Assembly: GCA_964616485.1 (NCBI GenBank)
Contig: CAZTRB010000005.1
Location: 11,592-75,591, forward strand
Direction of reading: 5' to 3'
From: an uncultured Muribaculaceae bacterium
Lineage (GTDB): Bacteria > Bacillota_I > Bacilli_A > RF39 > UBA660
Length of the DNA stretch: 64,000 nucleotides
Each line of letters opens with the position of its first letter. The stretch's first letter is position 1. Below the pieces are notes generated by a model. That model saw only the letters and a program-made list of their open reading frames with translations. It had not been told where the DNA came from and did not search any database. The position numbers were made by a program, and so were the translations under genes. Shown piece after piece: positions 16,801 through 47,665 of this stretch.

Positions 16801-18897
16801 TTCTGATATAACCGGAGCATTTTTATCTATTCTTACGATTTGGTCAGCCTGGCAAGTAGTACAGTTTCCTGCATTATCACAAACTTGTCCAGGTGATTCA
16901 TTAGTCGAATTTATATTAGAAGTATATGTTTTCGTTACCGTCGAATTCACACAACCACTATCAGCGTCATTACACGTTCCAGTAATCGTGACATTCGTCG
17001 TTTTCCATGTAGCGCTTCCACCACTATTTATACATGTTGGTGGTTCGTTATCGGCAGTTATCGTTTGGTGATACCATCCGCCACTATTTGGCGATTGAGT
17101 TATGACGTTACCAGCATTATCAACTAGTCTCGTATAAACGGTATATACTCCTCCAGGTAAACTAACAACGTGTTTATTTTGTCCAGTAATAGATGTAATG
17201 CCACCTACAGCAACACCGTTTCTTTCCATCTTGACTTGGAACTCTTTAATACCACTCAAATTATCAGCAACCGTAATTGTCAACGTTTGATTAGCACTAT
17301 ATACTCCCGTTAATAAGCTATAACTTGCAGTAGGAGCCGTCTTGTCGATTCTAGAAATCGTTACTGATGAAGGATCAGATGATAAACCGACAACGTTTCT
17401 CGTACGAACTTGAGCATTCGTTACATTTGACGAATAAATATTATAATTTGTCGATTGCCAAGAAGCGCCATCATTAAACGAATACTCAGTCGTTCTAACT
17501 AATCCAGCTCTTGGAATCAAGTTAACTTTTACATTGTTCTTAGTCCAGATACCTGGAGAAGCAGCGACTAAATCAATTCTAGAAACATTGTAAGATACAC
17601 CACTTAGTGCTCCTAAAACTAATCTAAAGTTAGAGTATTGTCCAACCGAAGGTAAAATAAACTCTATGTCTCTAGTACCTTGAATCATTAATGCTGATAC
17701 TGAGAGTTCATTCCCATTTTGATCTTTAAAGTAGACTCTACCCGTCGTCGTCGTTGGAATATTAGTATTTAAAGTCACAGTTAATTTCTTAATACCATTA
17801 AATGTCGGATACGAAGCAGTACCAAACGTTATAACTGGGTTTGTCGTAGTCGTCGTTAGTATTGTACCCGCTAAATTTAACCCCGAAAGAGTATATTCAT
17901 ATTGGTTAGGGAACAATTGATATGCATACTCAACATCAAATTCTGGTTTTGGAACACCCACTCTTACGTCGATTGAACAAATCCCCTCATTACCCGCTTC
18001 GTCTTTAACATAACCTACGACTGTCGTAAGTCCCATATCTAATTTAAGACTATCTTTTTTATTATAATCAATATTCTTTATACTAGTACCAAGTCCATAA
18101 GTTAAAAGTCCACTATCAGCATCATCTTTAGTATCGAACTTAACATAAACGTCTCCCGAATACCACCCTAACGCTTCTAAGTTTCCGCCATCTCTAATAA
18201 GTGTACAAGTTGGAGGAGTCTTATCGACATATACTTTTACCGGACAACTAGTTTGATTTCCACTCTTATCAACTATATTAATAAAACTCTCAGTAGTAGT
18301 CGTACCAAATGTCTTAGAGAATCTAGCTAAACGACAACCACTAGTTTGGTCACTACAACCAACACTAATTGTTCTATTTTCCTTAGTCCATGTAGTAGAT
18401 TCACCTATGACACTACCACATACCGGATTATCATTATCAGATTCATACTTAGAACAAGCCGAACCTTCAGTAGAATAATTTTCACAATACAAACACGCTC
18501 TATATTCGTAGTCACCACTAACTTTGCTTACCTCAACATAACTAAGTAAACTATTACAAAATCCATCTGTTTCCGGATCTTTTAATTCATCAGAGTAACC
18601 TTTTTCAATAACATCACTCAAATAGACAATAGATCTATCTCCATCGCCTGGTAAATTACAAGTGTAATCATTATTAGCAATACAATCAACAACCATGTTA
18701 TTCGTAGCTGTTTGCATATTCTTTTCATAAGCTAAATAAGTATTATCCTTACTACTTCCAATATAATTAGAAATAGCCGGAACTGTAATGATTGCCAATA
18801 TAGCAATTATCACGATAACGGCGATTACTTCTATTAAAGTAAACCCTTTCTTTTTCTTGGCTTTTTCCAAAATTTTACTAACAGTTTTCTTTCGCAT
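13846..18897 (-). CDS. giant (1683 aa) modular protein with an N-terminal type IV prepilin (class III) signal, multiple Ig-like modules and a Cys-rich C-terminal domain
   Basis: The start at ATG 18895-18897 is supported by AAGGAG 7 nt upstream and by a TTGACT-17-TAAAAT promoter lying inside the track's longer ORF. Leader MRKKTVSKILEKAKKKKG, then FTLIEVIAVIVIIAILAIITVPA (G-1, F+1, E+5; encoded at 18829-18846). The body has recurring D.SG(I/L)..Y and D.AGN strand motifs. No LPXTG. Confidence 0.9.
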   Translation of the reverse strand: MRKKTVSKILEKAKKKKGFTLIEVIAVIVIIAILAIITVPAISNYIGSSKDNTYLAYEKNMQTATNNMVVDCIANNDYTCNLPGDGDRSIVYLSDVIEKGYSDELKDPETDGFCNSLLSYVEVSKVSGDYEYRACLYCENYSTEGSACSKYESDNDNPVCGSVIGESTTWTKENRTISVGCSDQTSGCRLARFSKTFGTTTTESFINIVDKSGNQTSCPVKVYVDKTPPTCTLIRDGGNLEALGWYSGDVYVKFDTKDDADSGLLTYGLGTSIKNIDYNKKDSLKLDMGLTTVVGYVKDEAGNEGICSIDVRVGVPKPEFDVEYAYQLFPNQYEYTLSGLNLAGTILTTTTTNPVITFGTASYPTFNGIKKLTVTLNTNIPTTTTGRVYFKDQNGNELSVSALMIQGTRDIEFILPSVGQYSNFRLVLGALSGVSYNVSRIDLVAASPGIWTKNNVKVNLIPRAGLVRTTEYSFNDGASWQSTNYNIYSSNVTNAQVRTRNVVGLSSDPSSVTISRIDKTAPTASYSLLTGVYSANQTLTITVADNLSGIKEFQVKMERNGVAVGGITSITGQNKHVVSLPGGVYTVYTRLVDNAGNVITQSPNSGGWYHQTITADNEPPTCINSGGSATWKTTNVTITGTCNDADSGCVNSTVTKTYTSNINSTNESPGQVCDNAGNCTTCQADQIVRIDKNAPVISEAISGTPLFKDPTFASGTNNFSVYNNSGNGTVTHARVAQSNPYGSYVMRITTNGVSSPGLGGYVQTVTSRANAVYAHRIIAKIPVGYTIQRASNSTGTGSSVYWITPQAGTGDWAEYIYIQKAGSSGTFSTFGHVYLTGSGTSVSWDVAYSTIIDTGQDGLNGTIVFTGTDTNSGIIGYGINKSSTTQPTFTAISARTSFGIGVPNIASDNGTYYVWVKDQAGHVTNKAVVVDTIDTTKPTCVSSGGSSAWSKTTVNIIGTCSDSGSGCVNTTITKPYTSDINTTTAGPGEVCDRAGNCVTCPNNQTVKIDGTKPSKPTINLGSYTSGTWTSGNVVVTASSTDNISGISKYEYSNNGTSGWTTMSNPWTINFDTDKTYYVRSTDGAGNVSDNSNPFIVRRDATKPSKPTLTMKKADNSTYTSNTWSNQNIIITASSTDDNLAGYQYSTTGTSGWMAMTNPWTINWDTSTNIYVRAIDSSGNVSDVSNAVVIKRDATKPSKPTINLGSYTSGTWTSGNVVVTASSTDNISGISKYEYSVNGTSGWTNMANPWTISTDVESNYYVRSTDGAGNISDVSNVFNVKRDATKPSKPTLTLKKADGTTYTSNTWSNQNIVITASSSDTNLDRYEYSTNGTSGWTTMSNPWTISSDISTNVYVRAIDKSGNISDNSNVVTIKRDATKPSKPTINLGSYTSGTWTKSNVVITASSSDGTGSGIASYQYSHDAANWTAMSNPWTINWDGNWNFYVRSIDNAGNASAASNVFTIKRDTVNPTCTAVKTANGANGITVKVTTSDNASGVSPATYNDSNVKGTKTYTVTDGAGNTGTCSITSSCVTNKSCQHANCGWNSCLTGNPSVCVGGYNSCYTAGCGCTGNKRCTSYSCCGTYCKTKGNIYECYQNTGGYGCGTKCASSKPSSGGQTWYKTSTTCCVSGEEAATCYNDCCGCAGYYYCQHSACGWNNCLYTYSTCVGGNNSCRTAACGCENWG
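14500..15873 (-). repeat. five in-frame tandem repeats (~270-279 bp, 90-93 aa each) in an A-B-A-B-A pattern inside the giant gene
   Basis: Units begin D(A/G)TKPSKPT at 15873, 15603, 15324, 15054 and 14775 (complement). A-type units read INLGSYTSGTWTSGNVVVTASSTDNISGISKYEYS. B-type units read LT(M/L)KKAD..TYTSNTWSNQNI(I/V)ITASS. DNA copies are similar but carry many synonymous differences. Confidence 0.9.
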
Positions 18898-18931
18898 AAT
18901 AAAGCTCCTTGTATTATCTTTTATATATAAC

Positions 18932-18960
18932 ATTTTAATATCTTTATACATAATAGTCAA
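18932..18960 (-). promoter_or_regulatory. sigma-A-type promoter of the giant pilin-like gene
   Basis: Complement: TTGACT (18955-18960), 17 nt spacer, TAAAAT (18932-18937). About 35 nt upstream of the ATG. Confidence 0.5.
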
Positions 18961-19105: not shown

Positions 19106-21121
19106 ATGAAGAGATTTTTATTCGTGATTCTTTTGATATTGCTTCTTTTTAATAGTGGAACAGCACATGCAGAAATTATTAAGACTGGTCGGGCTATAGC
19201 CGATGTTGGGCTTAGAATTAGAGCTACTCCCTCTACTAGCGGAACACAATTAGGAACGATACCCTATGGAACGATAGTTAGAATCATCGGTGAAGCGAAT
19301 GGTTCGGGATGTAACGATCCTTGGTTTCAAGTAATTTACTCTACTGGTAATAGTAATATAAACGGTTATTCTTGTTCTACTTATATAACGGAAATTACGG
19401 AGTATGATACTGAAGAGAATACGCCTACAACACCACCAGTAAATAGCGAGGACTTCGAAGCCTACTTAACTTCACAAGGATTCCCAGAAAGCTACAAAGT
19501 CAAACTAAGAATTTTACACGAACAACATCCTAATTGGATATTTGTCGGTATAAAAGTAAGAGAGTCTTGGCAAACGTCTTTAAATCTTCAAGGCGAAGAT
19601 GGAAGAAGTACATTAAATGTTAATGCGGCAAGAAAGGCTTTGGGGCAAGAGGGATATTTATCGACTGCAGCGGGACACTATAACTATGAGACTGACACTT
19701 TTATTCCTAAAGATGGTACTTATTGGTTTCAAGCTAACTCAGATGCTATTGGATATTACCTTGACCCAAGAAACTTCATGGACGAGAAAAATGTTTTCAT
19801 GTTCGAAAGTCTTTTACAAAACGATGCTATTCATACTAAATCAGTAGTCGACGGGATCTTGTCGAGTGACTTCATGAAACAATATTCTAATCATTTCATG
19901 AAAGGTGCAAGAGACTACAACGTTTCTGCTACGCACTTAGCATCACTATCTAGACAAGAAGTAGGAATTACTAACGGTAACATTGTTACTAACGGAAAAG
20001 CCGGAGTATTATCAGACGGAGTTAACTATAACGGTTACTATAACTTTTTTAATATCGGAGCATCATCATCGGGAGATCCGAAGTTAAAATCGTTACAAAG
20101 CGCTAAAGCTCGCGGCTGGAATTCACCTGAGAAATCAATCGTTGGTGGAGCGGCTTTTATATCTAGTGGTTATATTAATGCCGGACAATACACGGCTTAT
20201 CTTCAAAAGTTTAACGTCGATCCTAATGCTACTAAAGGAATATGGCATCAGTATATGACTAACATAGCGGCATTATCTTCGCCGGCAATTACGACATATA
20301 ACTCATATAATAATCTCGGTTTCATAAACCATTCATTTATATTCTCGATTCCAATATTTACTAATATGCCAGAAAGCACTTCGTTACCTCCCTTAGGTAA
20401 CCCAAATAACTGGCTAAAAGAAATAAAGATAAATGGTATCGCTTTATCTAGTTTCTACGGTGGTACCACTAATTACACCATCGATATTCCTTACGAGGAA
20501 GAGATTACAGTAGAGGCTAAAAAAGTAAATAGTAACGCTACTGTATCAGGAACTGGAACAAAAGCCTTAACGGAAGACAAAACCACTTTAACGATTAAAG
20601 TCACTGCTCAAAACGGAAGCGTTAAAAACTATACGGTAACAGTTAATCGTGGGATAAAAGACGATCCTAACTTAGAGATAGATCTTCTATTAAAAGATGT
20701 CTTAACTGATAGCAAATACAAATACGATAGTAAAAATCTTTGGGGAATAACTCTAGGAACTAGCGTTAAGAGTCTTACTAGTAAAATAAAAGGAAAATAT
20801 AAAACAGTAAGTGTAAATATAAAAAATAAAGACGGCAATACTAAAACAGACGGTGTCATAGTTACAGGAGATAAAGTAACGATAACGACTAAACAAGAAT
20901 CTACTACTATCGAAGTAATAATCTTTGGTGATACTAATGGAGACGGATACATCTCGGCAATCGACATCTTAAGCGCTCAAAAACATATCCTTGGATATAC
21001 TACTCTTTTAGGAACTAGTTTCAAAGCGGCAGACATAAATAAAGACGGTGTCATATCAGCTTATGACTTACTACAATTTCAAAAACACGTCTTAGGTTAT
21101 ACTAATATAAGCCAATCATAG
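19106..21121 (+). CDS. secreted peptidoglycan N-acetylglucosaminidase (GH73-like) with SH3b, cadherin-like beta-sandwich and C-terminal dockerin
   Basis: Sec signal ending AHA|E. SH3b-like GLRIRATPSTSGTQLGTIPYGTIVRIIGE. Glucosaminidase-like core (YLDPRNF...HLASLSRQEVG...YNFFNIGA). Cadherin-like module at 20413-20652. Dockerin duplicated F-hand: GDTNGDGYISAIDILSAQKHILG and AADINKDGVISAYDLLQFQKHVLG (20927-21105). Confidence 0.85.
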   Translation: MKRFLFVILLILLLFNSGTAHAEIIKTGRAIADVGLRIRATPSTSGTQLGTIPYGTIVRIIGEANGSGCNDPWFQVIYSTGNSNINGYSCSTYITEITEYDTEENTPTTPPVNSEDFEAYLTSQGFPESYKVKLRILHEQHPNWIFVGIKVRESWQTSLNLQGEDGRSTLNVNAARKALGQEGYLSTAAGHYNYETDTFIPKDGTYWFQANSDAIGYYLDPRNFMDEKNVFMFESLLQNDAIHTKSVVDGILSSDFMKQYSNHFMKGARDYNVSATHLASLSRQEVGITNGNIVTNGKAGVLSDGVNYNGYYNFFNIGASSSGDPKLKSLQSAKARGWNSPEKSIVGGAAFISSGYINAGQYTAYLQKFNVDPNATKGIWHQYMTNIAALSSPAITTYNSYNNLGFINHSFIFSIPIFTNMPESTSLPPLGNPNNWLKEIKINGIALSSFYGGTTNYTIDIPYEEEITVEAKKVNSNATVSGTGTKALTEDKTTLTIKVTAQNGSVKNYTVTVNRGIKDDPNLEIDLLLKDVLTDSKYKYDSKNLWGITLGTSVKSLTSKIKGKYKTVSVNIKNKDGNTKTDGVIVTGDKVTITTKQESTTIEVIIFGDTNGDGYISAIDILSAQKHILGYTTLLGTSFKAADINKDGVISAYDLLQFQKHVLGYTNISQS

Positions 21122-21130
21122 GAGGACTTT

Positions 21131-22546
21131 ATGAAAAAAATCTTTAAACCATTTACAATGGTTTTCCTTTTTACAGTGATGTTTTTGTTTAATAATAACG
21201 TCTTGGCAGCTAACTTAAATGTCTCGATAACCTCGAGTACTAGTAGAGCGGTAGTTGGTAACAATATTACTTATACGGTTAGAGTGTCTTCTAATGCTAA
21301 ATTTGGTAATATTCATTATAGATTAGAATATGACACTTCTAAGTTAACTCATGTAAGTGGAACACTAAATAATTTTGATTTAAATGTTATCGATAAATAT
21401 TCTGCTACTTACACTTTTACTTTTAGAGCAAAAGCAAGTGGTAATGCTAGAGTAACGTTCGTAATCAACGAAGCCTTAGAATTAAATAACAATTCTTTTA
21501 ATTATAATACTAGAACCAATAAAGATATAACGATCATAACTCAACAACAATTAGAAGCTAGCTATAGTAAAAACAACTACCTATCATCTTTAAAAATAGA
21601 TAATTTTGAAATGACACCGGCTTTTAATAAAGATACTTTAGAATACTCGATAGAATTAGAAAACGATGTTAAATCAATAAATATTAGCGGTACTAAAGCA
21701 GATTCAACAGCATCAGTCGAAGGTTTGGGTGCACATGAATTAATAGAAGGACCAAATAAAATAAATATAAAAGTTACTGCCCAAAACGGTGCCTCTAGAA
21801 CATATACGATAAATGCAACGGTAAAAGAATTAAATCCCATTATCGTAACTGTCGACGGCAAAGAATATAATGTCGTTAGAAAAAAAGACCTAATAAAAAA
21901 ACCTAATAGCAAATACGAAGAGACGATTATACAAATAAATGAAGAAGATGTCCCAGCTTTCATAAACGAGACGACTAAAGTAACATTAATCGGGCTTAGA
22001 GATGAAGAGGACAACATTTCTTTATTTAGTGTTAAAAATGATACGTATATTCCTTACCAAGAATTCGCTTTTAGTAGTATAATATTTACGGAAGAAAATT
22101 TAGACGATCTTCCTAAAGGTTATACTAAAACTAAATTAAAACTCGAAGAAGTAGAAATAGACGCTTATCAAGATAACTCTAACTTAAATTTCTACCTAAT
22201 AAAAGGAGTGAACATTGAAACGGGAATAACTTCCCTATATCAATATGATAGTAAAGAAAACACTCTTCAAATATATAATGATTCATTAGCTAAACAAAAT
22301 AAGGAATTAACTAATAAGAATAATATTTATCTTTATACTATAATTGGTCTAATAGCACTCATAGCTATATCTTCCGGAACGATATTAGTAAAGACTTTAA
22401 AAAATGAAAAACCTAAAATAAAAAAAGAAGAGAAGACCGACAAAAAAGTCAAAGAAAAAGTAGAGGAACCGAAAGAACCTATCATAGAAGAAGAGAGTCT
22501 AACAAAACAAATAAAGAAAATGAAAAAAAATAAAAAACAATCTTAA
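21131..22546 (+). CDS. membrane-anchored surface protein with cohesin-like N-terminal domain and cadherin-like beta-sandwich
   Basis: Sec signal (VLA|AN). Residues ~27-135 (21209-21536) read VGNNITYTVRVSSNAKFGNIHYRLEYDTSKLTHVSGT, which fits the cohesin pattern. Cadherin-like module at about 21580-21825. C-terminal TM helix (IYLYTIIGLIALIAISSGTILV) and a Lys/Glu-rich tail. Confidence 0.7.
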   Translation: MKKIFKPFTMVFLFTVMFLFNNNVLAANLNVSITSSTSRAVVGNNITYTVRVSSNAKFGNIHYRLEYDTSKLTHVSGTLNNFDLNVIDKYSATYTFTFRAKASGNARVTFVINEALELNNNSFNYNTRTNKDITIITQQQLEASYSKNNYLSSLKIDNFEMTPAFNKDTLEYSIELENDVKSINISGTKADSTASVEGLGAHELIEGPNKINIKVTAQNGASRTYTINATVKELNPIIVTVDGKEYNVVRKKDLIKKPNSKYEETIIQINEEDVPAFINETTKVTLIGLRDEEDNISLFSVKNDTYIPYQEFAFSSIIFTEENLDDLPKGYTKTKLKLEEVEIDAYQDNSNLNFYLIKGVNIETGITSLYQYDSKENTLQIYNDSLAKQNKELTNKNNIYLYTIIGLIALIAISSGTILVKTLKNEKPKIKKEEKTDKKVKEKVEEPKEPIIEEESLTKQIKKMKKNKKQS

Positions 22547-22561
22547 TATACTGGAGGAATT

Positions 22562-24667
22562 ATGAAAAAGAAAAAGATCAAATACCAAAATATATTCACA
22601 ATACTTTGTATCTTAAGCAGCTTATATCTAATCCAATCTATCTACTTATTTTCACAAATAGAAACAGTTATTAGATACTCTGTAATTGGTATTTTAGTTC
22701 TTTTCGACTTCTTTATATTAATTAAGATGTTTTTCTTAAAGACTAAAAAAACTATTATATATATTATAGTCTTAGTCTTTTTTAGTGGAATATATATATT
22801 CTTAGGATACAATTTAAATAGAATATACTCTTATTTTACTAACTTAAATAAGACGATTACTTATTCGACTAGTTTAGTTACCTTAAAAAGTACTAAAGAT
22901 GTCGATCTAATAACACTTAAGAATGCTAATATAGGTCTTATCGATGATCCGACTTCTGAAGATGGACACATCTTAGCACAAGAGATAATAAAGAAAGAGA
23001 GTTTATCTAAAAACAATAATATTATCTATAGGCATTCATATACTGAACTTATATTAGATTTATATGATAAAGACTTAGACTATATTTTTCTTCCTAGTTC
23101 TTATGTCGATATCTTTAGTACGATCGAAGGTCTTGAAGATATAGAAGATAAAATTAAGACTATTCTAACGACAGAGATGGAAAAGACTAAAGAAGAGGCA
23201 CAACTATTAGGAGATCCTAAGAATATAGATGAACCATTCACGATGTTATTAATAGGTATTGATTCAACGGCTGATGGTATTCAAAATGCCGACTCATTTA
23301 ATGGAGATTCTCTTATGGTACTTACTTTTAATCCTAAGACGATGACTGCTACGATGTTAAGTATACCTAGAGATACGTATGTTCCAATAGCATGCTTTCC
23401 AAATAAAATAGAAAATAAGATAACTCATTCTGCTTCTCGTGGTACAAGTTGTGTTATAAATACTATTCAAAACTTATTGGATATAAAAATAGACTATTAT
23501 ATGAAGATTAACTTTACTGGTCTAGTCGAACTAGTCGATGCCGTCGGTGGAGTCGAAGTCGATGTTCCTTATAGTTTTTGTGAACAAAATAGTAAGAGAA
23601 AATTCGGTAATAGTACTATCTATGTAAAAGAAGGTTTAAGGACACTTAATGGTGAAGAGGCCTTAGCATTATCTAGAAATAGAAAGAATAATTATGAATA
23701 TTGTTCTAAAGAATGGACTAAGGGAAATAGAAGTGACTTTGTAAGAGCAGAGAACCAACAAAAAGTAGTTCAAGGAATATTAAATAAAGTAAAAGGTTAT
23801 ACTTCTATTAACAAAATAGAAGAGTTATTAAAAATAGTCTCTAAAAACTTAGATACTAATATGAGTGAGAAGACGATTTTCTCATTCTATAATATTGCAA
23901 AGGATGTCATGATATCATCGTCTAATTCTGATATACTATCTATTCAAAGATTAGAGATAGTCGGATGGGGACAAACGATATACGATGAGACATCTAAGTT
24001 ACAGTTGTGGAATTATGTTCCAAATAAGAGAAGTACCGAAGATGTAAAAGAAGCTATTAAAATAAATTTAGGACTGAAAAAACATGAGTTAATCAAGACT
24101 TTCACTTATTCTTGGAAAGAAGAATATACTCAAAAGATTCCAGGTAAAGGGCCTTATAGTATATATACTACTTATGACTTGCTAAAAGACTTTACTAACA
24201 TGAATATAACGGATGTCGAGCTATGGGCTGAAAAAAACGACATTACTTTAGTCATAGAAGAAGTAGAAAAGGTCGGTTACAAAAATGGTACAGTCGTTAA
24301 TCAAGAGTATCCAGTTAATAAGAGATTAGATTTAATACCCGATAGAACATTAAAAATAGAAGTAGTCAAGAATAAAGATACTAAAATAGACTGTTTAAAA
24401 GACGAGGAAAACATTATTTGTCTAATACCTGACTTTATCGGTAAAACTAAGAAAGACGTAGCTCTTTGGGGAAATAAGTTCTCTAATCTAGTAGATGTTA
24501 AATATGTAGAAGTGGAGTCTGAAGAAGAAGAGAATACGATAATAGATCAAACGATTAAAGGTATTACGATAAAAGAATTACTTGAGAATAAAGAGAGTAT
24601 CACTTTTACTATCGTTAAGAAAAAAGAAATAATACCACCTATCGAAGAAGAAATGGAAGAAGAATAA
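22562..24667 (+). CDS. LytR-CpsA-Psr (LCP) family cell-wall glycopolymer ligase with a long C-terminal extension
   Basis: N-terminal TM helices. LCP core LLIGIDS...GDSLMVLTFNPKT...SIPRDTYV...INFTGLVELVDAVGGVEVDV...GEEALALSRNR. The roughly 200 C-terminal residues are PASTA-like or unassigned. Confidence 0.85.
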   Translation: MKKKKIKYQNIFTILCILSSLYLIQSIYLFSQIETVIRYSVIGILVLFDFFILIKMFFLKTKKTIIYIIVLVFFSGIYIFLGYNLNRIYSYFTNLNKTITYSTSLVTLKSTKDVDLITLKNANIGLIDDPTSEDGHILAQEIIKKESLSKNNNIIYRHSYTELILDLYDKDLDYIFLPSSYVDIFSTIEGLEDIEDKIKTILTTEMEKTKEEAQLLGDPKNIDEPFTMLLIGIDSTADGIQNADSFNGDSLMVLTFNPKTMTATMLSIPRDTYVPIACFPNKIENKITHSASRGTSCVINTIQNLLDIKIDYYMKINFTGLVELVDAVGGVEVDVPYSFCEQNSKRKFGNSTIYVKEGLRTLNGEEALALSRNRKNNYEYCSKEWTKGNRSDFVRAENQQKVVQGILNKVKGYTSINKIEELLKIVSKNLDTNMSEKTIFSFYNIAKDVMISSSNSDILSIQRLEIVGWGQTIYDETSKLQLWNYVPNKRSTEDVKEAIKINLGLKKHELIKTFTYSWKEEYTQKIPGKGPYSIYTTYDLLKDFTNMNITDVELWAEKNDITLVIEEVEKVGYKNGTVVNQEYPVNKRLDLIPDRTLKIEVVKNKDTKIDCLKDEENIICLIPDFIGKTKKDVALWGNKFSNLVDVKYVEVESEEEENTIIDQTIKGITIKELLENKESITFTIVKKKEIIPPIEEEMEEE

Positions 24668-37648: not shown

Positions 37649-37921
37649 CTAGTTAACTGCTTCTTTTAATGCTGTACCAGCTTTAAAAGTAACGGCTTTT
37701 CTCGCAGCAATTTTAACTTTTGCTCCTGTTTGTGGGTTACGTCCCTCTCTTGCTTTTCTATGTGAAACTCCGAAAGTTCCAAATCCAGCAACTGGTACCT
37801 TGTTCCCCTTTGCTAATGCATTAGAAATAGTATTAAATACTGCGTCTAAAGCACGTGTTGCATCAGCTTTTGTAAGTCCCGTTTCTTTTGCAACTGCTTC
37901 TACTAAATCTGCCTTTTTCAT
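37649..37921 (-). CDS. hup: DNA-binding protein HU
   Basis: 90 aa. MKKADLVEAVA...GFGTFGVSHRKAREGRNPQTG is the canonical HU sequence. Confidence 0.96.
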   Translation of the reverse strand: MKKADLVEAVAKETGLTKADATRALDAVFNTISNALAKGNKVPVAGFGTFGVSHRKAREGRNPQTGAKVKIAARKAVTFKAGTALKEAVN

Positions 37922-38018
37922 TATATTACCTCCTCCTTTTAAGCATAATATGCTTACATATACAAAATATCACAAATTATTTGTAAAATCAACATATTAT
38001 ACGTATTTTTCAATATAT

Positions 38019-39059
38019 TTACATAATTAACGCTTTTTCATTCAAAACATAGCGATAAGCCTTATTTTCATGGATAATAATAAACGTACTTTCTCTTTTC
38101 CTCTTACTCTCAAAAAACAAGATAGGTATCCTTAATTCATCTTCGATATCGATTAGATCTTTAACGTTAGTTATATCCATTACATTAAATTTACTTAAGT
38201 CTGGTTTTTTAGCCACTTCAGCGATAACATTGGCATAAGTAGTTAAGATCCTATCTCTTTCTTTAGTGTAAGGGTCAGCGTTTTTAAGGTGTAGTACTCT
38301 CTTTAAATAATAGAAGAATAAGACAAATGACACCATTACTAAGAATATTCCAATAGTAAGACCGTACTGATTAACGATGTTATCTTTACTAAAAACATTT
38401 TTATTCTCATTGAAAGATCCCGTTTTATCGACACTTACTACCGTATCCAAAAGAGGAATTTTAGCTGTCATAGTGTGAAGATCAGCGACTTTCTTAGCCG
38501 TTTCTTTAGTCGTAATAAGATTGTTTATTTCAAAGACAACTTTTATATAAGCCTCTGTTAAGATAGAACTTTCTTTTCTAAACTCCAAAGCTTCTTCTTG
38601 ATATTCTTTATAATCGATAGTCGTTTTATAATCAAAGAACACGACTCCTGTCTCTTGTTTTATGACTTTATTTTTAGGAAACAAAACGTCTTCTCTCTTC
38701 CATAATTCTTCCGTTTGAAGGCCGTCTTTATAAGTGTTAACTAAAAACAAAGATATAGAATATTCCGCTTCAGAATCAATTAGATTAATAGACGTAAGGT
38801 CATAAGTAAATTTTAAATCGATATAGTCGATATATTTAGCTAGAATCTTATTCTTATTAATATATTCATCTTTATATAAAAAGTTATCTTTTAGTCTAAA
38901 ATTATACTCGATATCACCGAAAGATTTATAATCGACAACGATATTATTTTTGTTATTTTCTATACTCGTACTATCATAAGTTATAATTGATCCGGCAAAA
39001 AAGAGTAATACCCCTAGTAATAATAATACTATACTTTCCTTTTCTTTAGTTCTTTTCAT
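38019..39059 (-). CDS. DUF5305-like two-TM protein (346 aa), last gene of the accessory operon
   Basis: N-terminal TM helix, an extracytoplasmic domain of about 200 aa, a second TM helix (YGLTIGIFLVMVSFVLFFYYL), then a cytoplasmic C-terminal domain. This topology next to SipW-type peptidases matches what I recall for DUF5305. The assignment is unverified. Confidence 0.55.
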   Translation of the reverse strand: MKRTKEKESIVLLLLGVLLFFAGSIITYDSTSIENNKNNIVVDYKSFGDIEYNFRLKDNFLYKDEYINKNKILAKYIDYIDLKFTYDLTSINLIDSEAEYSISLFLVNTYKDGLQTEELWKREDVLFPKNKVIKQETGVVFFDYKTTIDYKEYQEEALEFRKESSILTEAYIKVVFEINNLITTKETAKKVADLHTMTAKIPLLDTVVSVDKTGSFNENKNVFSKDNIVNQYGLTIGIFLVMVSFVLFFYYLKRVLHLKNADPYTKERDRILTTYANVIAEVAKKPDLSKFNVMDITNVKDLIDIEDELRIPILFFESKRKRESTFIIIHENKAYRYVLNEKALIM

Positions 39060-39073
39060 CTTGACCTCCTATT

Positions 39074-40213
39074 TTAATTATTTAAAAGTTCATTAAACCA
39101 TACTGTAGGATATCCAAAATATGGTAGAGAAACATTATATTTTGCAACTATGTCTTCCGGATAAACTCTCCAGTTATCTTCTGACGAATTATTATCTCCT
39201 TTTGTTATGAGATAATCTATATCACCATTAGATAATCTACTTATATAATTAATCCTGTGAACGACATAGGTATTATCGTATCTATAATAGATTATATCAT
39301 ATTGAACTAAATTATTAATATCTTTATCACTTAATTTTTCTAAAATTAATAAATCTCCTCTTTTAAAAGTATCTTTCATACTATCGGATAAAACGGCCAT
39401 CGGATAATAATTAAATACTCTTAAGATAAACATTATTAATACCGATACGACGATGGCAAGAATAGTTATACCACCATTCTTTTCATCGATAAACCTTCTC
39501 GTTCTAGAATCGCTATTATTAACCAAGGTACTTATATTAAAATAGACGAACATCGGTAGCAACAAACCGAATAGAGTCGTTACAATCCAGGGATGGCTAG
39601 GTAAAATAGGTAAGATGATTAGTAATAGTCTCGTCCATACCAAGTAGATTATAGTCGTCTTATACTTCATATTTCTTTGTAAATAAGTCATGACATAACT
39701 AGTTATAATAAGCGGAAGGACTAATGAAGAAAACATCTTAAAAAGATAACTAAACTCACTTACAGAGAAAATATATAAGACATTCATACTACTGAAAGCC
39801 AATAAAAATGAAATGATACTATTATTAATTAAAGTATCTTTGGAGTTGGTAATTAACTTATATCTTATATACTCGTTTACCGTTATCGTTCCAATAGTAG
39901 TAAAAACAACTTTTAAAAGAGTAATTAAAGACCTATTATATATCGATTTCTCATAACCAAAGAAAAGACCAGACATAAAATATATTAAAGAATATATTAT
40001 TAAGATTATTATTATGTTTTGAGTCTTATCGTAGTTATCTTTGCTCTTAGTATATTTAGTATCGAATAAAAAGAAGAAAGTAACTGCTATTATCGATAAA
40101 ATTATCATATTCATTATTCCTGCATACACAGAGAAGATAGAAGTAACTAGATAATTTTGAAATATTATATATAAAAACAGTATTATATATGTTAAATATA
40201 TTTTCTTCATCAT
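39074..40213 (-). CDS. SipW-type (S26B, archaeal/ER-type) signal peptidase I fused to an N-terminal polytopic membrane domain of about 270 aa
   Basis: C-terminal AVLSDSMKDTFKRGDLLILEKL...VVHRI...ITKGDNNSSED parallels B. subtilis SipW (SGSMEP..GD.., H, TKGDNN). The N-terminal two-thirds form about 7-8 hydrophobic helices. Start MMKKIY (40213 or 40210) with GGAGGA directly upstream; the track start at 40261 is unlikely. Confidence 0.75.
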   Translation of the reverse strand: MMKKIYLTYIILFLYIIFQNYLVTSIFSVYAGIMNMIILSIIAVTFFFLFDTKYTKSKDNYDKTQNIIIILIIYSLIYFMSGLFFGYEKSIYNRSLITLLKVVFTTIGTITVNEYIRYKLITNSKDTLINNSIISFLLAFSSMNVLYIFSVSEFSYLFKMFSSLVLPLIITSYVMTYLQRNMKYKTTIIYLVWTRLLLIILPILPSHPWIVTTLFGLLLPMFVYFNISTLVNNSDSRTRRFIDEKNGGITILAIVVSVLIMFILRVFNYYPMAVLSDSMKDTFKRGDLLILEKLSDKDINNLVQYDIIYYRYDNTYVVHRINYISRLSNGDIDYLITKGDNNSSEDNWRVYPEDIVAKYNVSLPYFGYPTVWFNELLNN

Positions 40214-40310
40214 GGTCCTCCTATTATAAATATTATATACTACAACAAAGAAAAAAAACAACTTTTACAGTCTTTTGTACTGTTTAATTGTTTTTTTGTA
40301 AACTTATCTT

Positions 40311-40826
40311 TTAACGAACTACATAGTCAAGTGTCAGCCTCAAGTCTTTTGTTAAGTCTTCAGCGGTAACTTCTTCAGTCATATCTGGATTATAATAAGC
40401 TATAACTTCAAATAATTTGCTTTGTCCGACTTGTAATACTTCACCGGCTTCTATTCCGTTTATTGTATAAATAATAAATCCTTCTCCATAGTCTTTAGGA
40501 TTTAATTCAATGGCATTTAATTTAGCATCTAGGTTTCCTTGATTTCTAACATTAACAACATATTTAACGGTATCACCAGGATCGACAAAAGTAGCGCTAA
40601 ATATAGCGGTCTTAGAATCTAAAACGGTCGATTCTAAACTTTTTCCACTTCCCTCAGTCTCTGTGCTATTAATTGCCGTTATCGCGACGTCAAAGTCAGG
40701 GTTAACGATCGTAGCACTTCCTTTTATTTCTAACTGCGTAGATAAAAGAGCATACCCTACTGACACAAAAACAAGTGCAACTAGTAAAGCTCCAATCATC
40801 GTATTTTTCTTATCTTTATTGCTCAT
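40311..40826 (-). CDS. exported beta-sandwich protein with a SipW-cognate-type signal peptide (TasA/camelysin-like)
   Basis: KKNTMIGALLVALVFVSVGYALLSTQLEIKG resembles the SipW-cognate signal class (G-x-x-A-hydrophobic-hydrophobic-S/T). The mature part has a DPGDTVKYVVNVRNQGNLDAKL motif like TasA/CalY. Strong RBS GGAGGA. Confidence 0.55.
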   Translation of the reverse strand: MSNKDKKNTMIGALLVALVFVSVGYALLSTQLEIKGSATIVNPDFDVAITAINSTETEGSGKSLESTVLDSKTAIFSATFVDPGDTVKYVVNVRNQGNLDAKLNAIELNPKDYGEGFIIYTINGIEAGEVLQVGQSKLFEVIAYYNPDMTEEVTAEDLTKDLRLTLDYVVR

Positions 40827-40880
40827 ATAATCCTCCTATAATAAATTTTAATATATATGGCTTTTATTGTCAATTATTCG

Positions 40881-41948
40881 CTATGAATCTACTACTTTTA
40901 ATTTAAGACGAATCATACTCTTAACCTGATTAAATTGTTCAGTAGAATGAAACATTGTCTGTGAAATTGTCGTTGAACCTACTTTATCACCAGTTACGAC
41001 CCATTCGTAATAGTTTGTTCTTAAGAATGTACTAGGGTCTTTTCTATTTACATAAGGTTCAGAAACAGCTGTCGCATAGTTTTGCCAACCTTTAGCACCA
41101 TCAGCCGTCGTCCTTTGAAGCTGTTTTATTTTACCAGCACTAACTGGAAGTTTTACGATTATTCTAATAGTCTCTCCCTTTTTTACGACTATTTCATCAT
41201 CTCTTTTATATTCTTTTCCGTTATACCAAAGAGTAGGAGTTTGGGCTACTTTACCTATTTTAGGTGAGATATAATAATCATCATTATCAATATCTCCGAC
41301 AAAAGCCCTAGCTTCTTCATCGAGACTAAGATTAGTACTAGTTATTTGACTATTGACTATCTTTTTAACTTCTTCTTCCTTTATTTTAATCTCTTCTATT
41401 TTAGTAGTAGTAACTCCTTTAATAGAGGCTATCTCTTTATCAATACTCTCTTTTAAAATCGTCAAAGTTCTAAAGTCACTATCGACATTCGTCGTTAATT
41501 CATCTTTAGTAGATTGATAAGTCTTATAAGCACTAGTTAAAGTAGTCGTCTCTTCATTATTACTATCTAACTCGTATTTAGGTGAAGGTTCTCTTAGTTT
41601 ATCAAGAGTCTCTTTATTTTTCTCATACTGTAAATCTAAATCTTTAAAAGTCTCTAACATCGATACTAGATTGTTTACTATGCGTTCTGAAACTGGAATC
41701 AATGCTTGTTCGACATTTTTATTAAGATTTTTAATAGCTTCTATTATCTGTGGTAAAAACTCGGACTTTAAATACTCTTGTCCCGCTTCTTTCCAATTCT
41801 CACCGCTCATCGAATCTAATAGATTTGTGTCTATATCAACTATTTTAGTAACATCTTCAAGCACCCTTTTCGCTTTGTTAACAAGTTCTTTTTCACTTTT
41901 GAGTTTTTCATAATAATTATCGTAAGGATTAATATAAAAAATTGCCAT
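40881..41948 (-). CDS. LXG-like T7SS-substrate-type protein with a beta-rich (Ig-like) C-terminal domain
   Basis: No signal peptide. The helical N-terminal region of about 200 aa contains LLDSMSGENWKEAGQEYLKSEFLPQ, which parallels the LXG-domain core of Bacillus LXG proteins as I recall it (DALKGKGGDAIRTFYEECHKPFL). The C-terminal ~150 aa (GETIRIIVKLPVSAGK...YEWVVTGDKVGSTTISQTM) look like a Big-type beta-sandwich, with no nuclease or deaminase motif. Confidence 0.5.
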   Translation of the reverse strand: MAIFYINPYDNYYEKLKSEKELVNKAKRVLEDVTKIVDIDTNLLDSMSGENWKEAGQEYLKSEFLPQIIEAIKNLNKNVEQALIPVSERIVNNLVSMLETFKDLDLQYEKNKETLDKLREPSPKYELDSNNEETTTLTSAYKTYQSTKDELTTNVDSDFRTLTILKESIDKEIASIKGVTTTKIEEIKIKEEEVKKIVNSQITSTNLSLDEEARAFVGDIDNDDYYISPKIGKVAQTPTLWYNGKEYKRDDEIVVKKGETIRIIVKLPVSAGKIKQLQRTTADGAKGWQNYATAVSEPYVNRKDPSTFLRTNYYEWVVTGDKVGSTTISQTMFHSTEQFNQVKSMIRLKLKVVDS

Positions 41949-41964
41949 TTAATCACATCCTTTA

Positions 41965-42288
41965 TTAATTTATATCTAATTTGCTAGTATTGTCTTCTAA
42001 AAATTGAATTCGATTTCTTTCATCGGTATTATAAGCTTCGATTGCTTCTTCTAAAAACAAAATCAAACTCTCTAATTCTTTTATTTCTAAAGGAAAGTTT
42101 TCACTTATCTTTAAATACTTGTCATACATAATTTGTTGAGTCTTACCAACCCAAACATCAGTTTCTCCATTTATTTGCTTTAGATTATGATCTAATTCAT
42201 CGAATTTACTTTCAAGACTAAACTTTTTTTGTTTTAAAAGAGCTACTACTTTTTCAAGTTCTTTAGTATTAATATCTAAATTCATCAT
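41965..42288 (-). CDS. WXG100-family small helical protein (107 aa)
   Basis: Helix-turn-helix size class with a central W46-V-G48 (TGGGTTGGT, complement of 42145-42153). ATGA overlap with the upstream gene. Confidence 0.65.
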   Translation of the reverse strand: MMNLDINTKELEKVVALLKQKKFSLESKFDELDHNLKQINGETDVWVGKTQQIMYDKYLKISENFPLEIKELESLILFLEEAIEAYNTDERNRIQFLEDNTSKLDIN

Positions 42289-42587
42289 AGCTTATCACCG
42301 TCTTTTCTCATTTCAGCAACAAACTCATTATTTCTCTTAGTGTATACCCCCATACAATAGTCTATCTTTTCATAGATTCTTTTCAACCTATGATTCTCAT
42401 ATTTACTTTTTGAAATAAATCCACGATACTTATCACAAAAAGCATCACTATCGACGCCTTTCCAATTTTGTTCGATTATCGGAAGTAAGTCTTCTATTTC
42501 TTTAATTACTTTTTCTATCTCTTCATACTTAGTCTCAATAGATAACGAAACACTATCCATTTCTTGAAATTTAACTTTTAGTTTCAT
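42285..42587 (-). CDS. WXG100-family small helical protein (100 aa)
   Basis: Central W42-K-G44 followed by ..DAF (EQNWKGVDSDAF; complement of 42456-42464). It starts 1 nt after the upstream stop. Confidence 0.65.
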   Translation of the reverse strand: MKLKVKFQEMDSVSLSIETKYEEIEKVIKEIEDLLPIIEQNWKGVDSDAFCDKYRGFISKSKYENHRLKRIYEKIDYCMGVYTKRNNEFVAEMRKDGDKL

Positions 42588-42588
42588 A

Positions 42589-43482
42589 TTAAACTCCTTG
42601 CTTCAATACATCGATATATATTTCGTTAGTCAATAGGGTTTCAACGGTAATATCTAACTTTTTAGCGATGTTATTGATATAGTTTTTATATATACTCATC
42701 TCTTTATTAGTTAAGCCATCCGGTATTTCAGGAGCATAATAAAGAGAGTGAAAAGTTTTAAACAAAAGAGTCTTATTTTTATCCTCGATTAATAGTTCGG
42801 AAAAAGTAATATTACTTGATTCTGCTACTTTTTCTAGATGTTCTTTAGTTATTAAAAAAGTCAGGCTTTGTTCAAAAATATTAAAATCTTTGTTTTTTGC
42901 TAACAATTCTAAAAGTTGTTTTTGAATGACAAAATTATCTTCTGTAGAAAAAACTAAATTTGGTGCGAATCTTTTTAAGTAGAAGATTAAGGCCTTAGTG
43001 TTTTGGCCTCCAAATAAAAGACGATTTAAATTAAATGGGTCTTTTTCGTTAACGTTTTGAACTAGCAAACTTTGTCCAAACGAATCGAAATCAGCAAGGT
43101 CCGTAATCTGGCTATTAGGAAGCATGCTTGGTCCACCTACAGTCTCTCCAATTACACCACTAAATCCACCACCTCCAGTATAGCCACTATAACCACTACC
43201 ATTATTAGTATCATCTTCGACAATCTTACCAAGATTCTCTTCACTAGTTATCATGTCTTCACTATGTCCTCTAAGTCTTCTAATTAATTGTGTTTTATTT
43301 GTAGCAAGACTATCTACGTCTTTTTTAATATCTTCGGCAACAGTCGATAGTTCTAATTCTTTAAATACAGCAAAATCAGTAGCCACCGAAGTAGCGACTG
43401 CTTCCAAAAGGGCCGAAGTCTCTGATAACTTACTAATTACTTCTTCTAATTCTGCAGAGTTATAAATTATTTCATTTGTCAT
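42589..43482 (-). CDS. helical N-terminal (Lap1/SACOL2603-like) protein with Gly-rich linker and unknown C-terminal domain (297 aa)
   Basis: N-terminus MTNEIIYNSAELEEVISKLSETSALLEA resembles the DUF3130/TIGR04197-type start of T7SS accessory proteins. Gly-rich linker NNGSGYSGYTGGGGFSGVIGETVGG. The C-terminal ~170 aa are unassigned. No signal peptide. Confidence 0.45.
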   Translation of the reverse strand: MTNEIIYNSAELEEVISKLSETSALLEAVATSVATDFAVFKELELSTVAEDIKKDVDSLATNKTQLIRRLRGHSEDMITSEENLGKIVEDDTNNGSGYSGYTGGGGFSGVIGETVGGPSMLPNSQITDLADFDSFGQSLLVQNVNEKDPFNLNRLLFGGQNTKALIFYLKRFAPNLVFSTEDNFVIQKQLLELLAKNKDFNIFEQSLTFLITKEHLEKVAESSNITFSELLIEDKNKTLLFKTFHSLYYAPEIPDGLTNKEMSIYKNYINNIAKKLDITVETLLTNEIYIDVLKQGV

Positions 43483-43500
43483 ATAATCACCTACTTATTA

Positions 43501-44805
43501 TTAATCACTTCTATTTTTAAACTGTAATACTATCGGAGTACCACTTAATTCAAAATTTTCTCTTAATTTATTTTCTAAATATCTCTCGTATGAAAAGTGA
43601 ACGAGATTTTTATTATTAACATGAAATGTATATTTAGGAGGTTTCTTTCCCGTTTGATTGACAAAATATATCTTAAGTCTCTTACCTTTATAAGATGGTG
43701 GTGGATTTAATGTGTATGCTTCAATCATAACTTCAGATAAAAGACTACTCGCTATTTCTCTACTTATATTTTCTTTTACTTTAAGTATCTCAGGCATAAT
43801 AGTATGAATTCTCTTTTTAGTTAAAGCCGATGTAAATACGATCGGTACATAACTTAAAAATTGAAACTCTGATCTTACTTTCTTAGTATATTCTCTTATA
43901 TCCATATCTTTAACAGTATCCCATTTGTTAACGACGATTATTAATCCTTTACCACTTTCCAAGACATATCCGGCAATATGTTTATCATGCTCGATAATTC
44001 CTTCTTCCGCATTAATTACTAAGAGACAAATATCGCTACGATCAATCGCCTTCATACTTCTAAGAGCACTATACTTCTCAATATTTTCAAATATTCGTCC
44101 CTTTTTTCTTAATCCAGCTGTGTCGATAGCTACAAACTCTTCATCGTTATATCTGAACACCGTATCAACGGCATCTCTAGTCGTTCCAGGAACATCACTA
44201 ACAATTAAACGGTCTTCATTTAAAAGAGCATTTATAATACTACTCTTACCGACATTGGGCCTTCCAACGACGGAAAACTTTAAACGATTATCTTCTATTG
44301 AATAATCTCTCTTCGGTAAATGCGATACTATTTCATCGAAAAGTTCGATGAAACCGATATTATGCTCTCCACTTACTTGAACATAACTATCGAATCCAAG
44401 CTCATAAAAATCATAGATATTATCGATACTCTTTTTACTATCTACCTTGTTAATAACGACTATTACTTCCTTGTTACTTTTTCTTAACATATCTCTTACT
44501 AAATAGTCGTTACTAGTCAAGCCCTCTTTACCATCGACGATAAATAACACGACATCGGCTTGTTCGATAGCAATTTCCGCTTGCATTTTTATTACGTCAT
44601 TAAATTTTATCTCTTCACTATCGATACCACCGGTATCAATAACATTGAACTTATAATCTCCGTAAGTAGTATCACTATATATCCTGTCTCTAGTAACTCC
44701 AGGAGTATCTTCGATAATAGATATTCTTGAACCGACCATACGATTGAAGATTGTGCTTTTTCCAACATTAGGCGTTCCGACTAATGCGATAATTGGAAGG
44801 TTCAT
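43501..44805 (-). CDS. der: ribosome-associated GTPase Der/EngA
   Basis: Two tandem GTPase domains (GTPNVGKST, GRPNVGKSS; DTGG/DTAG; NKVD/NKWD) and a KH-like C-terminus. Confidence 0.95.
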   Translation of the reverse strand: MNLPIIALVGTPNVGKSTIFNRMVGSRISIIEDTPGVTRDRIYSDTTYGDYKFNVIDTGGIDSEEIKFNDVIKMQAEIAIEQADVVLFIVDGKEGLTSNDYLVRDMLRKSNKEVIVVINKVDSKKSIDNIYDFYELGFDSYVQVSGEHNIGFIELFDEIVSHLPKRDYSIEDNRLKFSVVGRPNVGKSSIINALLNEDRLIVSDVPGTTRDAVDTVFRYNDEEFVAIDTAGLRKKGRIFENIEKYSALRSMKAIDRSDICLLVINAEEGIIEHDKHIAGYVLESGKGLIIVVNKWDTVKDMDIREYTKKVRSEFQFLSYVPIVFTSALTKKRIHTIMPEILKVKENISREIASSLLSEVMIEAYTLNPPPSYKGKRLKIYFVNQTGKKPPKYTFHVNNKNLVHFSYERYLENKLRENFELSGTPIVLQFKNRSD

Positions 44806-44871
44806 ATAATCACCTCGATTTTCTTAATTATAGCAAATTTTCTCATCTTTGTTAACAAAAAAAGAAATAAA

Positions 44872-47609: not shown

Positions 47610-47665
47610 AAATTTACCTCTTTCAATAAGACTATTTTAACAAAGATTACCTTATTTGTGAACAC

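Follow-up and report, generated by a model that had tools for sequence, protein, structure and literature searches.

Seven consecutive genes on the minus strand between der and hup, in the genome of an uncultured Muribaculaceae bacterium (GTDB lineage Bacilli_A; RF39; UBA660), encode proteins that recall both type VII secretion system (T7SS) substrates and the machinery of TasA-type fibres. Do these genes form one system, or are they two systems lying side by side? The genes, here called g1 to g7, lie in a stretch of 64,000 nucleotides (the window; contig CAZTRB010000005.1, positions 11,592 to 75,591). A first-pass annotation, made from the letters alone, had read them as a single operon that fuses a T7SS-substrate-like module with a SipW/TasA-type export module and that was inserted between two core genes. 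Our comparative analysis leads us to favour, with moderate confidence, a different answer: an AbpX-like fibre module (g5–g7) is juxtaposed to an orphan WXG100-type cassette (g1–g4), the two being separately promoted and evolutionarily separable. Both modules are divergent members of already known kinds, and a preprint of January 2026 has already set out the layout of the trio, for AbpX loci (bioRxiv 10.64898/2026.01.04.697558).

Two modules with separate distributions

The list of open reading frames (ORFs) and a direct reading of the sequence bear out the seven genes and their spacing. g1 begins 18 nt after the der stop codon, and the gaps that follow are 1, −4, 16, 54, 97 and 14 nt, the 97-nt gap between g5 and g6 being counted to the g6 ATG at 40213. 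Since orthologues keep the same order in three more lineages (loci L019, L001 and L009, the contig of the last ending at g6), all seven are genuine genes. G+C content stays at about 30% across the window, and a compositional break is absent.

The close relatives are uncultured gut 'Bacilli bacterium' metagenome-assembled genomes (MAGs) with Der proteins 77–93% identical. A genome scan with g7 returned six loci, the window's own genome not among them, and a metagenome scan with a 12-sequence g5 alignment returned seven. Four arrangements can be distinguished. In the window and in L019 the order is der-g1..g7-hup. It is der-spoVIF-g1..g7-spoIVA in L001, and L009 is the same from der to g6. The third arrangement, der-[WXG cassette of other composition]-GNAT-spoVIF-(698-aa protein)-g5-g6-g7-racemase-spoIVA-hup, is found in L005; L014 is similar, without g6, and L022 is a variant with five small WXG-like genes and g5 only. 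In these three loci spoVIF separates the WXG cassette from g5. The fourth, der-spoVIF-g5-g6-g7-spoIVA, has no cassette at all and is represented by L002–L004, L016 and L015, the last from a complete 1.31-Mb chromosome. Distant trios in L020 and L023 (27–30% identity) have no WXG genes nearby; trio identity is 27–47% across L013, L015, L016, L020 and L023.

The g5–g7 trio is an autonomous module and a constant resident of this site; what varies, in presence, content and position, is the WXG cassette. This comparison does not support the proposed fusion of the two modules, nor the insertion of a whole operon between hup and der: the trio occurs without g1–g4 in L002, L015, L016 and the distant L020 and L023, the cassette alone is variable, and spoVIF and spoIVA have been lost from the window lineage. 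That genes 5–7 turn up without g1–g4 in relatives is one half of what, by the first-pass annotation's own statement, would speak against its reading. The two modules also differ in their rates of change. g1–g4 diverge fastest: their orthologues in L001 and L009 are 25–44% identical, as against about 80% for der in these two lineages; in L001, g1–g4 are at 28–44% versus 38–54% for g5–g7, and der and hup change far more slowly than either.

Genes for a small acid-soluble spore protein (SASP), spoVIF and spoIVA were not found by tblastn in the 64 kb, and relatives carry them at syntenic positions, which correspond to 37922–38018, 43483–43500 and 47610–47665 of the window (compared with L002, L005 and L015). 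The 59–64-aa ORF that comes after der in the same three loci is missing from the window as well. The window lineage, together with L019, may be asporogenous. It is because spoVIF and spoIVA are absent here from this lineage that g5–g7 and g1–g4 touch in the window.

Some of the alternative arrangements contain further peculiarities. In L014 (9269–10990), g5 and g7 are 235 nt apart with no g6, and in L022 (2432–3721) a racemase gene directly follows g5, with neither g6 nor g7. Therefore, unless these are MAG assembly errors, the subunit gene can persist without a dedicated peptidase or accessory protein. The 698-aa protein encoded between spoVIF and g5 in L005 (7789–9885; also L006, 312–2408) consists of a long series of helical repeats, each about 35 aa, and belongs to no real Pfam family; its numerous partial matches are spurious. 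L022 has an insertion between spoIVA and hup (6125–7471) that encodes a protein of 448 aa, whose N-terminus (KKAFTLIELLAVIIILGVL) is type IV pilin-like.

Transcription of the two modules

Of the minus-strand promoter-like sites between 37600 and 45000, the two best are one upstream of der and one upstream of g5 (Table 1). The former probably also drives g1–g4, via der transcription. The latter belongs to a pattern, TTGACA-17-TA(A/G)AAT followed by a ribosome-binding site (RBS), that nine loci keep 5' of g5, no matter if the gene before it encodes g4, SpoVIF or the 698-aa repeat protein. On the other side of the gene, a hairpin with a U-tract follows the g5 stop codon in all eight clade loci examined, its sequence differing between them. 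The hairpin of the window is a probable leaky intrinsic terminator or attenuator; the 107-nt stretch that holds it (40214–40320) has an energy z-score of −1.3 only. Because both the g5 promoter and the 3' hairpin are conserved, g5–g7 appear to be a transcription unit of their own, with the subunit gene set for excess expression. In view of these signals, a single seven-gene operon is not supported.

The sporulation genes that flank the trio in relatives raised the possibility of sporulation control. This seems unlikely to us, as the promoter that is conserved resembles those of sigma-A and the window lineage retains the trio without SASP, spoVIF and spoIVA at the syntenic sites.

A putative fibre subunit with a signal peptidase and a putative accessory protein

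The g6 protein proved to be what the first-pass annotation had taken it for, a SipW-type S26B signal peptidase (SPase). It scores 68.7 bits on TIGR02228 (cut-off 51.85) and 32.1 bits on Peptidase_S26 (PF10502; gathering score 22.9). Its best PDB relatives are human SEC11C and SEC11A (SEC11C 7p2q, E = 1e-8), and the catalytic motifs LSDSM (SxSM, Ser), VHRI (VHR, His) and KGDNN align to SEC11C. A hydropathy scan places eight, possibly nine, hydrophobic segments before the catalytic domain. On the equivalog model of Bacillus SipW (NF046067) g6 reaches 57.6 of the 190 bits needed; judged by sequence, the two are the same type of enzyme but not orthologues. The g6 protein has 379 aa from the ATG preceded by an AGGAGG RBS, and the gene caller on the Logan contig begins one codon later (378 aa).

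The assignment of g7 to a DUF5305-like protein with two transmembrane (TM) helices holds equally well. It matches PF17231 over profile positions 1–217 of 217 (E = 9.8e-13; 48.5 bits, gathering score 29), and its TM segments, residues 9–27 and 234–252, flank an extracellular domain, the C-terminal domain being cytoplasmic. It is a putative signal-peptidase accessory subunit, by analogy with the role proposed for such proteins elsewhere (bioRxiv 10.64898/2026.01.04.697558, PMC11821415). DUF5305 genes also occur in or beside cell-division/cell-wall (dcw-like) clusters (L018, 9833–10912; L023, 9995–12777); the one in L018 is a lone gene directly after a penicillin-binding protein gene, with no adjoining peptidase.

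The g5 protein has one hydrophobic segment (residues 10–28). Its signal peptide ends in V-G-Y-A26, followed by an amphipathic, donor-strand-like segment (L27–V41) and then by an acidic beta-sandwich. Across the predicted cleavage site, marked here by a slash, it reads ...SVGYA/LLSTQLEIKGSATIV..., with hydrophobic residues alternating after the site. AbpX of Pyrodictium abyssi aligns with g5 from the signal onward (...GLTYA/QWSETLSLSATIS...). The predicted mature protein has an isoelectric point (pI) of 4.23 and 15.9% D+E. An AlphaFold2 (AF2) model of g5 has a predicted local distance difference test score (pLDDT) of 77, residues 17–40 being of low confidence in the monomer.

How closely is g5 related to known fibre subunits? 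A 50-member alignment of its family compared with AbpX by hhalign gives a marginal similarity over 141 columns (E = 9.6e-5, probability 58%), and in a search of the PDB with the family profile AbpX (9sj2) comes out on top at E = 0.13, as the best and sole specific match. The two have in common a signal ending in ..G.(T)YA, an alternating-hydrophobic mature N-terminus, a PGD..N.G..A motif, a pI of about 4 and about 15% acidic residues. At the positions of the Ca-binding donor-strand residues W2 and E4 of AbpX, g5 has L and T, and the consensus of the g5 family is also without W2/E4. For TasA (query sequence checked against PDB 8aur), only 32 columns around the PGD..N.G motif align with the family, at a probability of 25%. 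Peptidase_M73 (PF12389, TasA/camelysin) did not match g5 or 34 family members in a Pfam scan, and the SipW-cognate signal model did not match g5 in an NCBIfam scan. The first-pass description of g5 as a TasA/camelysin-like protein with a SipW-cognate signal is thereby weakened: by its sequence, g5 appears only distantly AbpX-like, within the TasA superfamily. Its other Pfam matches are weak (DUF11/DUF7507, Ig-like), and fold searches gave unspecific, generic matches and recovered no structure-level match to AbpX.

The family to which g5 belongs is large. An exhaustive profile search returned 5400 cluster representatives at E ≤ 1e-3 (clusters at 50% identity), and the scans made with Pfam and NCBIfam yielded no model that covers a member as a whole; a tblastn search of plasmids with g5 gave no match. 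The N-terminal module follows the pattern KKN..I..LL..MSVGYA/..L.I.GTA.I..WDV.IT plus an Ig-like domain (P0009–P0158; L020, 843–2441; L021, 4444–9228). It is often the N-terminus of proteins of 300 to more than 1000 aa with adhesin-type domains (Flg_new, DUF285/PARCEL, BspA-type leucine-rich repeats, DUF6273 or F5/8C), and three genes with this module stand in tandem in L021 (4444–9228). A model for this family would better annotate surface proteins of gut Bacillota.

A divergent WXG100-type cassette

The hydropathy scan found no hydrophobic segment in g1–g4, in agreement with the first-pass annotation, which had noted no Sec signal in them; the W-K-G of g2 and the W-V-G of g3 that it had pointed out are likewise confirmed (Table 1). 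g2 scores E = 4.9e-5 on WXG100 (PF06013; 24.0 bits, gathering score 27.3) and E = 7e-6 on TIGR03930 (26.1 bits, cut-off 44.85). g3 matches the YwqH-like family at E = 1e-3 (1.2e-4 for its L001 orthologue) and WXG100 at E = 0.022, 15.5 bits (4.9e-4 for L001). Profiles built from the orthologues align full length with EsxA (3zbh), the top PDB match of g2 (E = 0.038), and with B. anthracis EsxB (4j41), among the best PDB matches of g3 (E = 0.02). Each of the two profiles finds the other, which makes g2 and g3 paralogues. The signal for their membership in the WXG100 superfamily is weak but consistent and sub-threshold, in their orthologues as well; the superfamily assignment of the first-pass annotation stands in that qualified form. 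With its YxxxD/E, g3 bears the 'export-arm' signature that has been discussed in connection with T7SS substrates and Lap1 (10.1101/2022.07.06.499029, PMC9900821). Two small proteins of the L005 cassette pass the WXG100 threshold of 27.3, with 47.4 and 29.9 bits; they are not demonstrable orthologues of g2 and g3.

g1 had been likened to Lap1/SACOL2603, and this did not hold up: no SACOL2603/DUF3130 match and no NCBIfam match at E ≤ 1 was obtained, the sole Pfam match is DUF5344 at E = 0.072, and a comparison with PDB sequences found nothing specific. Lap1/SACOL2603 proteins (DUF3130, TIGR04197) are about 100–150 aa long with an FxxxD motif, and g1, at 297 aa and without a profile match, fails to fit. 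Its orthologues in L019, L001 and L009 are 25–58% identical. The C-terminal domain of g1 resembles the repeats of a 741-aa protein of the L005/L014 cassette. This g1-like protein (L005, 2264–4489; L014, 5175–7166) comprises about eight tandem helical domains of about 75 aa (..TGLT.E.LLSG.YPE..), one or two copies of which are found at the g1 C-terminus. g1 is probably a T7SS-type substrate or accessory protein.

g4 combines two different halves. Its AF2 model (pLDDT 69 overall, 75–91 in the C-terminal domain) has helices at residues 22–46, 54–117 and 139–200. The C-terminal domain is matched by Foldseek to the Ig domains of the S-layer protein SbsC (E = 8e-5) and to chagasin/amoebiasin Ig folds; these are the only meaningful structural matches, and STAT-like ones were discarded as artefacts of the long helices. 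No toxin fold was seen in the C-terminus, and no immunity gene comes after g4, the next gene being g5. Relatives of g4 (P0004; proteins of 423 and 380 aa in L005) give weak WXG100 matches at the N-terminus, and the g4 profile found coiled-coil noise and nothing specific in the PDB. Only four clusters of g4 were found among 5.8 billion proteins. We dropped the idea that its C-terminus is a pilin-like domain, as hhalign shows no relation to the g5 family, and rejected a phage origin: PHROGs gave no meaningful matches, and g4 had none in a scan of viral contigs. In L012 (110–3297), the g4-like P0004, which has a W-Q-G of canonical form and ends in the same Ig-like domain, stands behind genes for VanY and SleB-like (Hydrolase_2) cell-wall hydrolases, with no g1–g3 or g5 in view on the 3.4-kb contig.

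Table 1. Genes and transcription signals of the der–hup interval (coordinates of the window)
Feature	Coordinates	Strand	Characteristics or basis
g1, signal-less helical protein, 297 aa	42589..43482	-	helical N-terminal region, Gly/Ser-rich linker, C-terminal helical domain
g2, WXG100-like protein, 100 aa	42285..42587	-	W42-K-G44, invariant in four orthologues
g3, WXG100/YwqH-like protein, 107 aa	41965..42288	-	W46-V-G48 and Y86-x3-[D/E] in all four orthologues
g4, signal-less protein, 355 aa	40881..41948	-	WXG-like helical N-terminus, long coiled helix, C-terminal Ig-like beta-sandwich (~225-355)
g5, putative fibre subunit, 171 aa	40311..40826	-	signal peptide, donor-strand-like segment, acidic beta-sandwich
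g6, ER/archaeal-type (S26B, SipW-type) signal peptidase I with N-terminal 8-9-TM domain	39074..40213	-	TIGR02228, Peptidase_S26, SEC11 match
g7, DUF5305 protein, 346 aa	38019..39059	-	PF17231 and two TM helices
Promoter of the g5-g7 unit, TTGACA-17-TAAAAT	40845..40873	-	11/12 matches
Hairpin and U-run directly 3' of g5	40251..40296	-	candidate leaky intrinsic terminator or attenuator
Sequence matching a sigma-70-like promoter, upstream of der, TTAACA-17-TATAAT with TG	44827..44855	-	11/12 matches; consensus match only
der (EngA GTPase), core gene upstream	43501..44805	-	ORF list; orthologue with MMR_HSR1/KH_dom-like Pfam matches
hup (HU), core gene downstream	37649..37921	-	Bac_DNA_binding Pfam match on identical Logan gene

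Proposed mechanism and comparison with known systems

We propose that g5 would be exported by Sec through its N-terminal signal peptide and that g6, with its SipW-type catalytic domain on an 8–9-TM body, would act with g7 to cut it after G-Y-A26. The N-terminal strand thus freed could complete the beta-sandwich of a neighbouring subunit (donor-strand complementation), so that an acidic fibril would form outside the cell. The strong promoter of g5 and the leaky terminator behind it would keep g5 in excess over g6 and g7. As for the cassette, the helix-turn-helix paralogues g2 and g3, the latter with the YxxxD/E export arm, may pair with the helical N-termini of g1 and g4 in a pre-secretion bundle, which a type VIIb secretion system (T7SSb) encoded elsewhere would export; g4 would thereby bring an Ig-like, non-enzymatic domain to the surface or medium. 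The modules would abut on account of the der-to-spoIVA/hup gap being a variable spot in this uncultured gut Bacilli clade, combined with the loss of spoVIF and spoIVA.

AbpX loci are the closest counterpart of the trio. In archaea and bacteria, including Bacillota, where AbpX homologues have been reported, the subunits, for which a low pI and about 15% Asp/Glu are given as traits, are reportedly encoded with a dedicated SPase I of about ten TM helices and a two-TM DUF5305 'SPase accessory' protein (bioRxiv 10.64898/2026.01.04.697558). The likeness extends to a secreted subunit that is small and acidic (the mature form having about 160 aa) with a signal ending in ..YA, an amphipathic donor strand after it and the PGD..N.G..A motif, and to the adjoining many-TM SPase I of the TIGR02228 type and its two-TM DUF5305 partner. 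However, g6 has eight or nine TM helices rather than ten, g5 has Leu and Thr in place of the Ca-coordinating W2/E4, and the g5–g7 unit comes without minor-subunit, tip, anchor, sortase or cyclic di-GMP genes. The tapA-sipW-tasA operon of B. subtilis likewise encodes an S26B (ER-type) peptidase with a matrix-fibre subunit, whose signal carries Ala at −1 preceded by an aromatic residue at −2, and assembly by donor-strand exchange, predicted by analogy for g5, would be shared too. In contrast to that operon, g6 has an extra 8-TM domain, TapA is missing here and the gene order is other; DUF5305, present here as g7, is not among the three B. subtilis genes. In the haloarchaeal tafi loci the peptidase TafD is encoded with the DUF5305 protein TafG (PMC11821415, PMC12337348), and the pair adjoins strand-donating fimbrial subunits (TafA/C/E), as in the trio. 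Unlike g5, however, the tafi subunits are Tat-exported; the tafi peptidase has four TM helices and two outside domains, and there are several subunit types and an anchor.

The cassette is best compared with LXG and orphan WXG100 modules of T7SSb (Lap1/Lap2-LXG; YwqH-YwqI-YwqJ; group B Streptococcus). As in those, two helical proteins of about 100 aa are encoded directly 5' of a larger protein (g4) with a helical N-terminus and a variable C-terminus, signal peptides are lacking, and WxG and YxxxD/E motifs are present. Remoteness from machinery genes, fast divergence and presence/absence variation are shared as well. The differences are that g1–g4 have no LXG, DUF3130 or DUF3958 matches, only the weak one to DUF5344; that g4 ends in an Ig-like domain rather than a toxin, with no immunity gene and no DUF4176; and that an extra protein, the 297-aa g1, leads the cassette.

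Alternative explanations

Several observations weigh against the preferred reading of two abutting modules. The multi-gene WXG cassettes of the clade are all found in the der-to-spoIVA interval next to g5, and in L009 only 9 nt, with no promoter between, separate g4 from g5. Every WXG100 score of the window's own g2 and g3 falls under the curated thresholds. g4, which had been called LXG-like, gave no match to LXG (PF04740) at E ≤ 1 and its orthologues none at E ≤ 0.1; what stands of that call is the small helical partners directly upstream and the WXG-like helical N-terminus. The dependence of g1–g4 on a T7SS is an assumption by analogy, and no core component (EssC, EsaA, EssA or EssB) was seen in about 78 kb, that is, in the 64 kb for which the first-pass annotation had already reported none and in about 14 kb of Logan flank; nor was there an FtsK/EssC-type protein among window ORFs of at least 470 aa. 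Since orphan WXG100/LXG genes distant from the machinery are common in T7SSb-positive Bacillota (10.1101/2022.07.06.499029, PMC9900821), a missing core nearby is not unusual. The shared interval and the short distance in L009 would also fit functional coupling, as the first-pass annotation had suggested, with the cassette as a T7SS-exported fibre accessory and the Ig domain of g4 binding, capping or decorating the g5 fibril; so would the contiguity of g1–g7 in four lineages, even though g4 identity goes down to 41–72%, and the Ig-like, non-toxin end of g4 with no immunity gene behind it. We nevertheless regard such coupling as unlikely. L002, L015, L016, L020 and L023 have the whole trio in conserved form but no cassette, the cassette remains in L022 without g6 and g7, and g5 has its own promoter. 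g4 has no profile similarity to the g5 family, its Ig domain is modelled confidently as a full fold in which no strand seems to be lacking, and a g4-like gene occurs in the unrelated context of L012. The broader proposal, a single surface system in which WXG-targeted g4, exported by T7SS or another route, joins or binds a donor-strand fibre assembled by Sec and SPase, strikes us as decidedly unlikely. If true, it would be the first link of type VII-style substrates to TasA-superfamily fibres.

The lack of a visible T7SS core within about 78 kb, together with an 8–9-TM domain in g6 that has no assigned function, could instead be taken to mean that g6 and g7 themselves handle signal-less WXG-fold proteins, a new export route that the first-pass annotation had offered as its other option. 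We find this very improbable: the same pair of SPase and DUF5305 protein goes with AbpX- or tafi-type subunits in archaea and in bacteria without WXG genes, g1–g4 offer an SPase no cleavable signal, and WXG cassettes exist where g6 (L014) or both g6 and g7 (L022) are missing. It is rather unlikely, too, that g1–g4 are not secreted at all and are instead either helical proteins of the cytoplasm or what is left, in decay, of an island of T7SS effectors in a genome that was reduced and lost the machinery. The small genome of a related MAG (OZ006981.1, 1.31 Mb), the absence of core genes nearby, the sub-threshold family scores and the missing cassette in several relatives would agree with this, but the four ORFs are intact in four lineages, and WxG and YxxxD/E are invariant at 25–44% identity in two more distant lineages, which argues for purifying selection on secretion-related motifs. 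For the trio, the alternative is that g5 does not polymerise but is a monomeric surface or Ig-like adhesin module, with g5–g7 as only a dedicated processing and display system. This would be in line with the generic fold matches, with the absence from g5 of the W2/E4 residues that bind Ca in the AbpX donor strand, and with the use of the module as the N-terminus of large adhesin-like proteins in many relatives. It is made quite unlikely by the alternating hydrophobic residues right after the predicted cleavage site, by the low predicted confidence of that segment in the monomer, by AbpX being the best and only specific PDB sequence match, and by the strong promoter and the terminator after g5, which suggest an excess over g6 and g7. 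An AbpX-like fibre module lying next to an orphan WXG100-type cassette remains our preferred reading. If it is right, the trio would be a bacterial, host-associated addition to the recently defined AbpX/TasA-superfamily systems with a polytopic peptidase and a DUF5305 partner, and the cassette a divergent example with non-toxin cargo; were essC absent from these genomes, the locus would be much more interesting.

Other surface-type genes in the window

A 1704-aa ORF on the minus strand (13846–18960) encodes a giant pilin-like protein that starts with a prepilin N-methylation motif (PF07963) and also contains Ig domains of the Big_7 type. On the same strand it is followed by a glycosyltransferase (GT) cluster (GT4, Alg14/Alg13-like, GT2) and then by a 482-aa ORF without a Pfam match. 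We considered this neighbourhood as a T7SS cluster and rejected it, given its content of a pilin-like giant protein, glycosyltransferases and pyruvate:ferredoxin oxidoreductase (PFOR). On the plus strand (19106–24667), three successive surface-type genes encode proteins with SH3_3 and a type I dockerin (671 aa), with a cadherin-like beta-sandwich (471 aa) and with LytR_cpsA_psr and PASTA domains (701 aa). In a Bacilli lineage with small genomes, the presence of a dockerin is a hint of cohesin-dockerin surface assembly.

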